Below, piece by piece: positions 8,223 to 19,391 of a stretch of DNA of 41,801 bases. Position numbers and translations under genes: made by a program. Position 1 is the stretch's first letter, and every line of letters starts with the position of its first letter. The notes beneath the pieces are model-generated. The model saw only the letters and a program-made list of their open reading frames with translations. It made no database searches and was not told where the DNA came from. Source of the stretch: a phage; the sequence record PZ179881.1; one strand, 5' to 3'.

Positions 8223-8450
8223 ATGAACCGCGTAGTTTACTCCACCGATGCCGCTCACCCTGCGTACCGCAACCCACTGGTCGAGCAACCTGCTGAATCC
8301 ATGCGGGAGTGGGAAGAACGCCCACGCCGCACAAAGCGCGAGTGCCGCGATGCACATAATGCGCTGAACATTGAGTACCGCCGCCGTGCCGCCGCGTGTG
8401 GCATGACCTTTGAGGGCTACCTTGCCCGCTTCAACATAACCCTGAAATGA
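8223..8450 (+). CDS. Hypothetical early protein
   Basis: 75-aa ORF, GAGGA 8 nt upstream. Confidence 0.6.
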   Translation: MNRVVYSTDAAHPAYRNPLVEQPAESMREWEERPRRTKRECRDAHNALNIEYRRRAAACGMTFEGYLARFNITLK

Positions 8451-10962: not shown

Positions 10963-11631
10963 ATGGCTAGACAGATTGAGAAACGGCTCTGGTTGCCGCA
11001 GGCGCGGCTTCTTCCCGTTGGTCATGACGATAAGATAATCCACAAAGGGTGTGGTGATAGACCGTCGCTGTTCATCAAGAACGACGACGATAAGTATTGG
11101 TGCTTCTGCCACCGCTGCCACGGCGGTGACTTCATGCCGAAGACATTGCAGCGAGTCAAGCAGAAGCTGGCACCTAAAACCGGATGGGTGCCGGAGGATA
11201 TCATCCCGCTTATGGATGCGGTGGTGAGTGAGCCTTACAACTTCCGTGAAATCTTCGAACGATATAGGATTAGTCCTTATGTTTCAATTCTTCGGTTTGC
11301 GCGTGATACGAAACGCATATACCTTCCTGATTCATCTGGTTCGCTCATGGGCCTGGATGCTACGGGGCAGGCCATTGCCCGGTTCTATTCCCCGCACAAG
11401 CGAAACCTGGCGGTATTCTATGGTGACAATCCTGGTAGCCTTGTTGTTACTGGAGGCATTGAGGAGTATCTTACTCGTTGCAAGGCTAATGAGTCCGCAA
11501 TCCTGGTGATGAACCGGGCCGCTGAGAAGGCCGCACTTGCAGAGCTTTCGAAGGGTTCGTATACGAATCTGGTCGAAGGCAAGTTTCTTAAAGACGGGTT
11601 CAAGCGTGACCTGCGAATGTTCAAGGAGTAA
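10963..11631 (+). CDS. DNA primase (zinc-ribbon plus primase core)
   Basis: Cys4 zinc-binding motif CGDRPSLF...CFCHRCHGG near N-terminus; lies directly upstream of helicase; start chosen at ATG 10963 (GAGG 8 nt upstream) rather than track GTG 10915, which falls inside a hairpin. Confidence 0.6.
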   Translation: MARQIEKRLWLPQARLLPVGHDDKIIHKGCGDRPSLFIKNDDDKYWCFCHRCHGGDFMPKTLQRVKQKLAPKTGWVPEDIIPLMDAVVSEPYNFREIFERYRISPYVSILRFARDTKRIYLPDSSGSLMGLDATGQAIARFYSPHKRNLAVFYGDNPGSLVVTGGIEEYLTRCKANESAILVMNRAAEKAALAELSKGSYTNLVEGKFLKDGFKRDLRMFKE

Positions 11632-12878
11632 TGATGTTAGATAAACTGCTGGTAGCAACACTGGCTGACCGCACACGATACAAGGCGCTGGCTAAGCAGG
11701 TGCCTCTGGGTGAGCTGGGGACGTCAACCGAGTGGCTCATCAAGTCGTTCGGCACGTTCTTCGACCGTAACCCGGAGGCGAAGCAGGTCGATTATGATGT
11801 GCTCCGCACGATGGCGCGGCTCAAGCTGGAGAATCAGGAGTCTGCCCCGGTGCTGACGCTGATTGACAAGGCGGCGGAGATTAAGGTCACGCCGGAACAA
11901 ATCAACAACACGTCCCTGATGCTGATGGAGCAGGGCTACGCCGGGCGAGTCGCTACACTGGTTAACCGATACCAGGACGGCGAGGAGCTGGACATTAGCC
12001 ACGAGCTTTACAAAGAGACGATGGCGATGCGCAAGCAGATTGGCGCGTCGGCTGAAACCATGTTTGAGGAGCCGGATATCCATGAGATACTTGCTGAGCA
12101 AGCTCGTGACGAAGGCCTTAAATTCCGACAGACTTGTTTGCAGGAGTTCATCAAAGGTCTTATGCCCCCGCTGTCAGTTGCTTTCTGTGCTGGAGTGGAC
12201 TCTGGTAAGACCTCGTTCCTCTGCGACGCCCTCACCTACTTCGCGCCGCAGGCGGAGAAGCTCTGGCCAGGCCGCCCGATACTCTGGTTCAGCAACGAAG
12301 GCGTCGTCCGCGAAATCTGGCCTCGTCTCTACTCCGCTGCCCTCGGAATGGATGGGAAGAAGTTAGCCCACATGCCAGCGCGTGACCTGTATAAGAAGTA
12401 CGAGGATGCGCTGGGCGGCAACCGCCACAAGATTAAGCTGAAAGATGCACACGGCTGGTCACTGGCTCAGGTAGCCGGGGTGGTTGAGGAGATGAATCCA
12501 ATCATCGTCGTGTTCGACATGCTGGCTAACTTCAAGTTACCCGGCGTGGAGAAGCGCCACGAGAAGATGGAGGCGTTGTTCCAGGAGGTGCGTGAGATGG
12601 CAGCGCTGCATGACTTCATCGCTATCAGCACCGTCCAGTTGAGCGCCGAGGGTTACGACATGCTGTACCCGCCAGGCACCGCATTGAAGGATGCGAAGAT
12701 TGGTATTCAGGGTGCGCTGGATATCCAGATTAACATGGGCCGCTTGAACGACCAGGCTTACGAGGCGATTCGCGGGTTCAGCCTGCCGAAGAACAAGCGT
12801 AAGATGGTAGGCAAGTCCAGTAACATGAAGGCTGAGGTGTTGTTCCAGCCTGACTTAGCGAGGTTTATTGACAATTGA
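11631..12878 (+). CDS. Replicative DNA helicase (DnaB/T7 gp4 helicase-domain-like)
   Basis: 415 aa; Walker A-like AGVDSGKTSF; AAGGAG upstream; ATG overlaps primase stop. Confidence 0.75.
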   Translation: MMLDKLLVATLADRTRYKALAKQVPLGELGTSTEWLIKSFGTFFDRNPEAKQVDYDVLRTMARLKLENQESAPVLTLIDKAAEIKVTPEQINNTSLMLMEQGYAGRVATLVNRYQDGEELDISHELYKETMAMRKQIGASAETMFEEPDIHEILAEQARDEGLKFRQTCLQEFIKGLMPPLSVAFCAGVDSGKTSFLCDALTYFAPQAEKLWPGRPILWFSNEGVVREIWPRLYSAALGMDGKKLAHMPARDLYKKYEDALGGNRHKIKLKDAHGWSLAQVAGVVEEMNPIIVVFDMLANFKLPGVEKRHEKMEALFQEVREMAALHDFIAISTVQLSAEGYDMLYPPGTALKDAKIGIQGALDIQINMGRLNDQAYEAIRGFSLPKNKRKMVGKSSNMKAEVLFQPDLARFIDN

Positions 12879-13048
12879 ATCAGGACATAACTATCTGCCA
12901 GTGCAGCCGCATGTACGACGACCTGACAATGCAGGTGATTTATAGAACATGCAAGCGCTGCACAATGCGCAAAGAGGAGGCGGCTAAGGCCGCTGTCCGT
13001 AACGCACCGATTAAACGTCTGCAATTACTGGAGGACATTCATGGTTAA
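12875..13048 (+). CDS. Possible small zinc-ribbon protein (uncertain, non-ATG start)
   Basis: Not in ORF track (<60 aa). Frame open from 12872; TTG 12875 would give 57 aa containing C-x-C...C-x2-C (ICQCS...RTCKRC); an ATG at 12911 would give 45 aa lacking the first Cys pair; weak SD. Confidence 0.25.
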   Translation: MNQDITICQCSRMYDDLTMQVIYRTCKRCTMRKEEAAKAAVRNAPIKRLQLLEDIHG

Positions 13049-13232
13049 TATTCAGCAAGTAGTTGAGATTGCTAAAGAAACCCACGGTGGCAAGGATATG
13101 TTCTTGCATGAGCTGGCTGAGGGTATGTGTGGTGCATTCCGCTGTGAAGGGCTGCATTGTTCGAACTGTCCGTTTAACAACGGGGACGCTCTGAAAGAGC
13201 ACATCATTGAATTGGCGGGAGAACTGGCATGA
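13041..13232 (+). CDS. Small Cys-rich hypothetical protein
   Basis: 63 aa with GGAGGA 6 nt upstream; Cys cluster CGAFRCEGLHCSNCP. Confidence 0.55.
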   Translation: MVNIQQVVEIAKETHGGKDMFLHELAEGMCGAFRCEGLHCSNCPFNNGDALKEHIIELAGELA

Positions 13233-14134
13233 GCAGCTTAACCGTAATGAAGGGCGTGGCGTTCACGCAGAAGCGCCTGCTGCAATGGCTCAAGGAGGAC
13301 GGCAAGGTAGTCGTCCAGACTAAGCGCGACGAGATTCGTTGTGTGGCTAAGGTGGAAGACACTGGCGTAACCTACACCAGCGCCAGCGGCAAGCCCCTCT
13401 ACAACATACACCAGGCGTTCAGCAACCTGTTCACCATGCTGTTTGAAATGACAGGGCTGACGAAGTTCGACATGGGTGTGAGCGTGAACAACTCCTTCGA
13501 CTTGACGAAGCGTGTAGTTCGTGCTAGCAAGAAGCAGTACGACTGCCGTGGCCAGATTGAGTACGAGTTCTGGGACGGCACGAAGAAGAATCCGATTCAC
13601 GTCTACACCGGGCCGCTCACTATGGAGTTCTGGCTGTATGACCTGCCGGAGCTGGGGTGGAAGCCCTACGAAGAACGCCGGAAGATGATGGCTGAGCTGT
13701 GCCGCATGGCAGGTAACAGCCTGTTCTGCCCGGAGACAGAGGTGGTGACCAGCGAGAAGGATGTGTACCAGATACACGACATGCTCATCGGCCTGGGCCA
13801 CGAAGGTACAATGGTCAAGCGCTTCGACCACCGCTACACCGAAGGCCGGACAGTAGACTGGATGAAGTTGAAGCCAGAGGATGAAGTTGATGTGGAAATT
13901 ATCGGCTACACGCCAGGAGAGAACGGCTTCGAAGGAATGGTGGGGTCGCTTATCGGCAGAGCAGAGGACGGCAGCACTGTCAGTTTTAGCGGATTTACGC
14001 TTGAGCTTCGACGGGAACTCACTGATAATTTTGAAGCGTATCGTGGACGCTGGGCCGAGGTTCGCTATATGCAGCGCGATTCTCAAGGCGGCTACCGCCA
14101 CCCGCGCTTCTACCGCTGGCACCCCGATAAGTAA
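13229..14134 (+). CDS. ATP-dependent DNA ligase
   Basis: 301 aa; nucleotidyltransferase-like motifs (LKEDGK / KRDEIR region, EGTMVKR, DWMKLKP, C-terminal RHPRFYRWHPDK); position before DNAP as in phiKMV-type genomes. Motif I is atypical, so moderate confidence. Confidence 0.65.
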   Translation: MSSLTVMKGVAFTQKRLLQWLKEDGKVVVQTKRDEIRCVAKVEDTGVTYTSASGKPLYNIHQAFSNLFTMLFEMTGLTKFDMGVSVNNSFDLTKRVVRASKKQYDCRGQIEYEFWDGTKKNPIHVYTGPLTMEFWLYDLPELGWKPYEERRKMMAELCRMAGNSLFCPETEVVTSEKDVYQIHDMLIGLGHEGTMVKRFDHRYTEGRTVDWMKLKPEDEVDVEIIGYTPGENGFEGMVGSLIGRAEDGSTVSFSGFTLELRRELTDNFEAYRGRWAEVRYMQRDSQGGYRHPRFYRWHPDK

Positions 14135-18520: not shown

Positions 18521-18934
18521 ATGAAAAACATCATCGACGTAAACGAGTTCACCCGCGCTTATCATGCAGCCGAGCTGGGTGACCTGGTGCAACGTGGCCT
18601 GTACAAGCAGGTTGGCCAGATTCGTACTGAATACTTCACCATGAATGGCGCGGCGCGTCAGGTGGTTCGTCGTGAGAGCCTGGCGGTTATCCACGACCTG
18701 CACTTGCAGAAGTTCTACGCTGTAGAGCAGTACAAGGGCATCGCCATCCGCGCAGAGATTCGTGATGAAGAAATGCTGGCGGCCATCATCGAAACCCTGC
18801 CGACCCTGGAGCCGGACGAAGGCTTCGTGTACGACCAGACCATTGAGCTGTCCGCTGAGGAAGTTCGCCGTGAGCTGGTAGTCGCGCCGGAAGGCGTAGA
18901 GGTCAACGACGGTACGGAAGGCCTGGATGCGTAA
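18521..18934 (+). CDS. Hypothetical protein
   Basis: 137-aa ORF, AAGGA upstream; acidic C-terminus. Confidence 0.6.
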   Translation: MKNIIDVNEFTRAYHAAELGDLVQRGLYKQVGQIRTEYFTMNGAARQVVRRESLAVIHDLHLQKFYAVEQYKGIAIRAEIRDEEMLAAIIETLPTLEPDEGFVYDQTIELSAEEVRRELVVAPEGVEVNDGTEGLDA

Positions 18935-19391
18935 ATTAACCCGTTCACAAGCCGCTGTACTGGCGGCTAAAATGGTTCGTGAGTCTGCTGGCTGCCCGCT
19001 GTGCCAGCGCTCATGGGCGGAGGTACAGAAGGATGCAGAGGACAAGGCTGCTGCTAAAGGCAAGAAGTTACGGCAGGCACCGTATGTGCTCGACCACGAC
19101 CATAACTCAGGGCGTTGCCGAGGCGTTCTCTGTCGCGGCTGCAACGGTGCTGAGGGAAAGGTTGCCAACGCTGTCTCGGCCTGGGGCAAGACGGGAAAGG
19201 AGTACGCCGCTATTCTTGGGTGGCTACAGCGCATGGTGGCGTATCTCCAGCAAGAACCTACGGAGTATATCTACCCGACACACGTAATGGCTGACGAGAA
19301 GAAAGCGAGCGCGGCTCAGCTACGTCGCCAGGCAGCACAAAAGAAGGTGCGCGAGCGCCGCAAACAGATTGCAGATAAACGAGGTAAGTAA
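18927..19391 (+). CDS. Endonuclease VII-like Holliday-junction resolvase
   Basis: 154 aa; CPLC ... DHDH ... GRCRGVLCRGCN arrangement characteristic of T4 endoVII-type nucleases. Confidence 0.7.
   Translation: MRKLTRSQAAVLAAKMVRESAGCPLCQRSWAEVQKDAEDKAAAKGKKLRQAPYVLDHDHNSGRCRGVLCRGCNGAEGKVANAVSAWGKTGKEYAAILGWLQRMVAYLQQEPTEYIYPTHVMADEKKASAAQLRRQAAQKKVRERRKQIADKRGK

Follow-up and report, generated by a model that had tools for sequence, protein, structure and literature searches.

Two small cysteine-rich genes between helicase and ligase of a GAP227-type Cronosvirus genome, one of them homologous to the N-terminal domain of T7 gp1.7

The phage DNA of sequence record PZ179881.1, 41,801 nucleotides (nt) long and referred to in its entirety as the window, carries two short cysteine-rich open reading frames (ORFs) on the plus strand between the genes for a replicative helicase and a DNA ligase. 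The first, ORF A (12875..13048), runs from a TTG to a TAA at 13046-13048; read from that TTG, it would encode 57 amino acids (aa) with two cysteine pairs, C8-x-C10 and C26-x2-C29. The second, ORF B (13041..13232), runs from an ATG to a TGA at 13230-13232 and encodes 63 aa that include the cluster C-x4-C-x4-C-x2-C-P (CGAFRCEGLHCSNCP; C30, C35, C40, C43, and P44; aa 30-44, at 13128..13172), a presumed metal site. A preliminary description of the window had pointed out both ORFs, crediting the 63-aa one with this cluster and a strong Shine-Dalgarno (SD) sequence; the latter can be read from the sequence as GGAGGA at 13030..13035, 5 nt upstream of the ATG. The flanking genes that it had named were also identified: upstream, a DnaB-like replicative helicase of 415 aa (11631..12878, plus strand; Pfam AAA_25 at 5e-10 and DnaB_C; PHROG 19 at 3e-58), and downstream, an ATP-dependent DNA ligase of 301 aa (13229..14134, plus strand; PF01068, DNA_ligase_A_M, and PF14743, OB_2; PHROG 114 at 2e-68). 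All four genes form a chain of stop/start overlaps, in the order helicase, ORF A, ORF B, ligase: the helicase TGA (12876-12878) overlaps the ORF A start as TTGA, the ORF A TAA sits inside ORF B with an overlap of 8 nt, and the ORF B TGA overlaps the ligase ATG as ATGA. Judged from this gene order and these overlaps, the four are probably translationally coupled.

From 12600 to 13500, identity to Cronobacter phage vB_CskP_GAP227 (NC_020078; Autographiviridae, Melnykvirinae, Cronosvirus) was 98.4% across the entire stretch; identity to Kosakonia virus Kc318 was 93%. GAP227 coordinates become window coordinates by the addition of 4641, a fixed offset that marks the window as a circularly permuted GAP227-type genome. 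Between GAP227_16 (DNA helicase) and GAP227_19 (DNA ligase), which correspond to the two flanking genes, NC_020078 annotates two hypothetical proteins, GAP227_17 (138 nt; 45 aa) and GAP227_18 (192 nt). ORF B is identical to GAP227_18, and ORF A is GAP227_17 with a longer N terminus. The pair is thus not new, and the upstream frame, which had been called unlisted, does appear in the ORF list of the window (12875..13048).

ORF B encodes an acidic protein (10 D/E and 4 K/R) that matched PHROG 14146, a family annotated as of unknown function (E value, 1.7e-7; residues 29-58), and carries its motif C...C-x-G-x2-C-x2-C-P. Relatives in sister phages matched the same family with E values from 3.5e-24 to 3.5e-6. 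Divergent homologues occupy the same slot in EspYZU05, EspYZU13, Dev-CD-23823, phi80-18 (g23), and fHe-Yen3-01 (gp22), and a relative was found in every Cronosvirus and Pokrovskaiavirus genome examined. Among 1.84 billion representative proteins, a profile search found 33 matches at E values of ≤1e-3, nearly all of 53 to 73 aa. Across 34 free-standing sequences of the family, C30, C35, C40, C43, and P44 were invariant at a mean column identity of 26%, which answers for ORF B the question of cysteine conservation raised in the preliminary description; the five alleles of ORF A described below, saturated at synonymous sites, likewise kept their four cysteines. Other members of PHROG 14146 (phi80-18 g23, Escherichia coli phage ECBP5_0014, and a 57-aa protein of Providencia phage PSTRCR_120) resemble ORF B in size (53 to 73 aa), in the invariant Cys4-Pro signature, and in a gene position usually just after a helicase or primase-helicase gene, and differ from it mainly in the N-terminal half, which is only 20 to 45% identical. 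Two repeat proteins vary the theme: in P0038 (three repeats) and P0033 (two repeats) the first cysteine of each repeat is gone, and an extra cysteine stands 6 to 8 residues past the C-P, giving C-x4-C-x2-C-P-x6-8-C. Each repeat thereby retains four potential ligands, as a tetrahedral metal site predicts. Weaker matches were also seen in N4-like Vibrio and Salmonella phages.

The Cys cluster of ORF B repeatedly, if weakly, matched "nucleotide kinase" genes of T7-like phages in tblastn searches. These kinases and T7 gp1.7, a deoxythymidine monophosphate/deoxyguanosine monophosphate (dTMP/dGMP) kinase, are two-part proteins: their N-terminal ~55 residues aligned over their full length with the ORF B family and are followed by a C-terminal DUF3310 (PF11753), which in T7 gp1.7 is limited to residues 122-184, outside the ORF B-homologous region. 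Profile matches ran in both directions, from residues 8-54 of a Klebsiella phage kinase to PHROG 14146 (2.7e-9), from residues 49-86 of T7 gp1.7 to PHROG 14146 (3.5e-3), and from phi80-18 g23 to the kinase family PHROG 2585 (9e-3). Alignment of the 34-member ORF B family with five kinases by hhalign gave a probability of 96.6% and an E value of 5.3e-10 over 53 columns, and tblastn of the kinase N-terminal part onto the window returned 13128-13187 (E value, 6e-5). The layout is also shared: in both gp1.7 (PHROG 2585) and ORF B, an N-terminal helix with I/L-x-K/I-L-I/V is followed by C-x3-4-C-x-G/N-V-x-C-x2-C-P, then by N/D-rich residues and a C-terminal helix, and both proteins come from early/middle DNA-metabolism regions of Autographiviridae. 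They differ in the first cysteine loop (C-x3-C in T7 gp1.7, C-x4-C in ORF B), in gene position (after the ligase for gp1.7, after the helicase for ORF B), and in extent, as ORF B ends after the Cys4 domain, whereas gp1.7 continues into the DUF3310 kinase domain. These sequence comparisons identify ORF B as a homologue, encoded on its own, of the Cys4 domain at the N terminus of gp1.7. DUF3310 was found neither in ORF B (Pfam) nor in the six frames of the window (tblastn and a local hidden Markov model), so that ORF B is not predicted to be a kinase and, lacking the kinase domain, would not be expected to have dTMP/dGMP kinase activity. The same result rules out a split gp1.7 with its kinase domain elsewhere in the window. 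A correspondence between ORF A and the N-terminal extension of T7 gp1.7 (residues 1-41, C-x2-C...H-x-C) was likewise rejected (BLASTP E value, 1.3).

Free-standing ORF B-like genes were found directly after a helicase or primase-helicase gene in metagenomic contigs L013 and L015 to L017, in E. coli phage ECBP5, and in Pseudomonas phage MR4; in contig L014, such a gene lies just before a ligase. In several lineages of Autographiviridae, therefore, ORF B relatives usually follow the replicative helicase directly. The preliminary description had called the pair unusual, which overstates the case, since ORF B belongs to the widespread PHROG 14146 and ORF A is a lineage-specific addition missing from sister phages. 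In the T7-like Providencia phage PSTRCR_120 (MW358928; Studiervirinae; positions 1444-2125), a separate gene for the 57-aa ORF B-like protein stands at the gp1.7 locus, and the next gene, which overlaps it, encodes a 173-aa protein with a subthreshold DUF6378 match (PHROG 474, labeled "phosphofructokinase"); the N-terminal domain thus apparently comes with varying partners downstream. In phage MR4 (MT104467; ~2400-2840), gp13, the "putative DNA primase," appears to be a PHROG 37472-type ORF overextended at its N terminus, and the extension overlaps the unannotated ORF B-like gene (…CIGISCHDCPFYNH…) in another frame, directly after the primase/helicase. A fusion of the ORF B-like domain to a primase in MR4 was accordingly rejected as an annotation artifact, the match lying in a frame other than that of the annotated gene.

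Unlike the widespread ORF B, ORF A appears to be a small protein of a narrow lineage. It was missing from the sister phages EspYZU05, GY3, EspYZU13, and Dev-CD-23823, where one ORF B-type gene fills the gap, and from the contigs carrying P0012; a scan of IMG/VR for its relatives returned GAP227 itself only. Its four cysteines span 12896..12961, a putative knuckle inside a variable cassette (~12879-12967), and its 3' part (RKEEAAKAAVRNAPIKRLQLLEDIHG; 12968..13048), which runs across the ribosome-binding site into the beginning of ORF B, is near-invariant. A DNA alignment of five alleles, with Nei-Gojobori counts, revealed a sharp alternation: the end of the helicase gene was nearly identical, about 24 knuckle codons were extremely divergent, and the last 22 codons of ORF A were again nearly identical, as was ORF B in four of the five alleles. 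Within the variable segment only the four cysteines, D15, and L17 were invariant. There the proportion of synonymous differences (pS) was 0.43 to 1.0, that is, saturated, the proportion of nonsynonymous differences (pN) was 0.14 to 0.49, and the ratio of nonsynonymous to synonymous divergence (dN/dS) was 0.16 to 0.55 where computable; the conserved part showed 0 or 1 synonymous difference. Saturated synonymous sites together with a dN/dS below 1 identify the N-terminal knuckle as several old alleles that are held under purifying selection and exchanged by recombination. Positive selection on the cassette was rejected on the same grounds (dN/dS below 1, synonymous divergence saturated), as was a diversity-generating retroelement, no reverse-transcriptase gene being annotated in the GAP227 stretch examined. 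Contig L012 also has the N-terminal two-thirds of ORF B swapped, and an invariant island of ~75 nt stands there between two variable cassettes. This island was considered as an RNA element (fold z score, -0.5; no Rfam match in the whole window) and as a promoter (no sigma-70-like site), and both were rejected; the sole terminator-like hairpin was weak and on the minus strand.

The near-invariant tail of ORF A includes RLQLLEDIH (13016-13042), which recurs at the C terminus of g21 of Yersinia phages phi80-18 (42 aa; PHROG 28767) and fHe-Yen3-01. Like ORF A, g21 follows the helicase as the first small ORF, and in both cases the motif and the translation start signals of the gene that follows (ribosome-binding site and ATG) overlap; unlike ORF A, g21 is without the four-Cys knuckle, and the N-terminal halves are unrelated. 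ORF A matched only positions 18-39 of the 42 in the PHROG 28767 profile (E value, 3.2e-4), and pairwise BLASTP with g21 aligned only 15 residues (E value, 2e-6). In both genera the LEDIH codons (CTGGAGGAYATYCATG) are also the SD sequence and ATG of the next gene, and the conservation of RLQLLEDIH is for that reason at least partly dual coding; the similarity of ~15 residues may partly reflect this embedded translation-initiation signal. Different, synonymous codons are used for 4 of the 10 identical residues in the shared tail, however, which speaks for some constraint at the protein level. The slot between helicase and ligase is more crowded in phi80-18 (Pokrovskaiavirus; 2097-2798), with four small ORFs, g21 to g24; the window has counterparts of just two of these, g21 (tail of ORF A) and g23 (ORF B family), and g22 and g24 fall into separate orphan families, PHROG 6570 and PHROG 27256, respectively.

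AlphaFold2 models of ORF B, built from alignments of 16 and 34 sequences, were of low confidence (predicted local distance difference test [pLDDT] scores of 64.2 and 63.5) and agreed on a helix at residues 4-15, a helix at 18-32/33, a Cys-rich loop, and a helix at 48-62. Foldseek searches with the model found no match in the PDB, and the matches in BFVD were members of the family only; for T7 gp1.7, no relative with a solved structure was found either. ORF A and ORF B share with generic Cys4 zinc knuckles and ribbons the number of four cysteines and their short spacing (C-x-C...C-x2-C in ORF A). Read backwards, the spacing of the ORF B cysteines is that of the retroviral C-x2-C-x4-H-x4-C knuckle, a likeness that serves as a lead and not as a test. 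The preliminary description had spoken of small zinc-ribbon proteins. That fold, in which two knuckles on beta-hairpins give one zinc ion its four Cys/His ligands, did not emerge: the ORF B cluster is compact and modeled between helices (pLDDT, 64), it has no match among solved folds, and no Pfam zinc-finger model matched either protein.

Taken together, the comparisons indicate that ORF A and ORF B are genuine protein-coding genes, and we give a probability of roughly 0.55 to the reading in which both belong to the replication operon of GAP227-type Cronosvirus, ORF B as a metal-stabilized accessory protein and ORF A as a lineage-specific knuckle protein. The ORF B product would then be small, acidic, and helical, with a structural metal ion, most likely zinc, bound by its four invariant cysteines, and it would serve replication and nucleotide supply by binding proteins, as an accessory and not as an enzyme. 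ORF A would be translated from TTG 12875 with an N-terminal four-Cys knuckle, and the codons of its conserved C-terminal tail would double as ribosome-binding site and start codon for ORF B. The adaptor role within the replication module that the preliminary description had suggested is, for a small metal-binding protein, compatible with these data: genes related to ORF B adjoin the helicase gene in several phage lineages, and the part of gp1.7 homologous to ORF B is an accessory domain of a nucleotide kinase. Several points weigh against this replication-operon reading. Both proteins are known from sequence alone; no meaningful match to either, or to the family alignments, was obtained in sequence searches of Pfam, NCBIfam, and PDB; and the ORF B models, being of low confidence, do not define the geometry of the cysteine site. 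The family is not universal in Melnykvirinae, as no match was found in the Aeromonas or Erwinia relatives, and ORF A is dispensable in sister phages. Homology to the N-terminal domain of gp1.7 transfers no mechanism, and the terminal C-P of ORF B resembles ferredoxin-type motifs, making an iron-sulfur cluster conceivable.

An unlikely though coherent alternative places one or both proteins at the interface with the host, as host-takeover or antidefense proteins or as targets of host immune sensors, that is, as small, fast-evolving early/middle proteins that bind host factors. The interval from helicase to ligase is a hot spot of mosaicism, with at least three deep alleles of the ORF A N terminus, with ORF A present or absent among close relatives, and with at least three divergent types of ORF B within one genus; the small size and acidity of ORF B would suit such a role. 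Moreover, gp1.7, which carries the homologous domain, has been reported as an activator of the Avs5 defense protein (PMC11897194) and was mutated in T7 phages escaping retron Ec48 (bioRxiv 10.1101/2020.06.21.156273). Yet Avs5 may sense either part of gp1.7, the variable part of ORF A shows no sign of positive selection wherever dN/dS could be computed, and the conservation of the helicase-adjacent position across genera points to the replication module instead.

A rather improbable alternative concerns ORF A alone: translation only from the internal ATG at 12911, giving 45 aa with the single C-x2-C, or no expression of the allele found in the window, the C-x-C being a relic. This is the start annotated for GAP227_17 (window positions 12875-12913 correspond to 8234-8272 of the GAP227 record), and gene calls in the seven public contigs with the window allele omitted ORF A in five, gave the 45-aa form in one, and gave the 57-aa form in one. 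That small genes here are easily missed by gene callers, as the preliminary description held, is thus true of the TTG allele of ORF A but not of ORF B, whose exact sequence was called as a gene in 10 of the 10 places shown. In favor of the ATG, too, the only canonical start that takes in the C-x-C of the window allele is a TTG, its nearest GAGG lies 11 nt upstream, and sister phages dispense with the gene altogether. Against it, the frame is open from TTG 12875, this codon is present in seven of the seven contigs, and no SD sequence can be read upstream of ATG 12911. The relatives P0004 to P0007 (including Kc318) are 53 to 56 aa long and all have C-x-C-x15-C-x2-C, so that, at saturated synonymous divergence, the window allele still has the same 15-residue distance between the pairs as four alleles that start at ATG. 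Their ATG overlaps the helicase stop as TGATG, much as the TTG does as TTGA, an arrangement suited to termination-reinitiation. ORF A therefore most likely starts, as far as sequence can tell, at TTG 12875, as the preliminary description had made conditional for its C-x-C...C-x2-C pattern. Because this TTG is the sole start with the C-x-C, is kept in all seven contigs, and faces an ATG with no SD sequence, the annotation of GAP227_17 is probably 12 codons (36 nt) too short.

Slightly less probable still is that the Cys cluster of ORF B binds an iron-sulfur cluster or is redox active, which would make ORF B a small redox or iron-sulfur protein. Its four cysteines, packed into 14 residues, close with an invariant C-P, which recalls the ferredoxin motif C-x2-C-x2-C-x3-C-P, and a very weak NCBIfam match was obtained to the redox-disulfide domain TIGR03980 (E value of 0.088, far below the cut-off). 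The spacing, however, fits no iron-sulfur or redox motif family in Pfam or NCBIfam, no genes for iron-sulfur assembly or redox partners were found in the window, and phage Cys4 mini-domains of this size mostly bind zinc. As for the notion that both ORFs are chance open frames without a product, ORFs of such a size abound in the G+C-rich window, whose list has 310 with 40 aa or more, but the notion is scarcely credible given a family conserved across genera with invariant cysteines and proline, purifying selection on ORF A, and a strong SD sequence with stop/start overlaps to essential flanking genes.

The wider neighborhood offered further observations. A precursor of a ribosomally synthesized and posttranslationally modified peptide was considered and rejected, as the neighbors are helicase, ligase, and DNA polymerase and no maturase-like gene was found among them or in the GAP227 stretch examined. 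An HNH endonuclease gene lies between ligase and DNA polymerase in some Cronosvirus-like contigs (L028, 2667-3092), and a nucleotidyltransferase gene lies there in EspYZU13 and the Yersinia phages; the window has neither at this place. Elsewhere in the window, DHDHNSGRCRGVLCRGC at 19092-19142 (plus-strand ORF 18927-19391) weakly matched a Cys-cluster query; it is unrelated to ORF A and ORF B and resembles an endonuclease VII/HNH-type motif.

As it stands, the finding matters little, since both genes were already catalogued as hypothetical proteins of a sequenced phage. What is added is, first, a homology link between the orphan family PHROG 14146 and the hitherto unexplained domain at the N terminus of T7 gp1.7, a link of which no mention was found in the literature searched; second, a probable correction of the GAP227_17 start to a TTG 36 nt upstream, which restores the complete four-Cys site; and third, a clean example of phage mosaicism, in which a saturated cassette of 24 codons adjoins 22 codons with 0 or 1 synonymous difference. 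The link to gp1.7 gives a testable handle in the form of metal content, binding partners, and whether the domain is sensed by Avs5.

A broader and decidedly tentative idea, which we consider doubtful, is that the ORF B-type Cys4 module (PHROG 14146) is a mobile metal-binding docking domain of Autographiviridae that anchors nucleotide-supply factors, or others, at the replisome or at a shared host partner, being free-standing beside the helicase in many lineages and fused to a deoxynucleoside monophosphate kinase in T7-like phages. If so, ORF A would be a modular partner, a swappable zinc knuckle that sets specificity, and the Cys4 module could be the part of gp1.7 recognized by host sensors such as Avs5.

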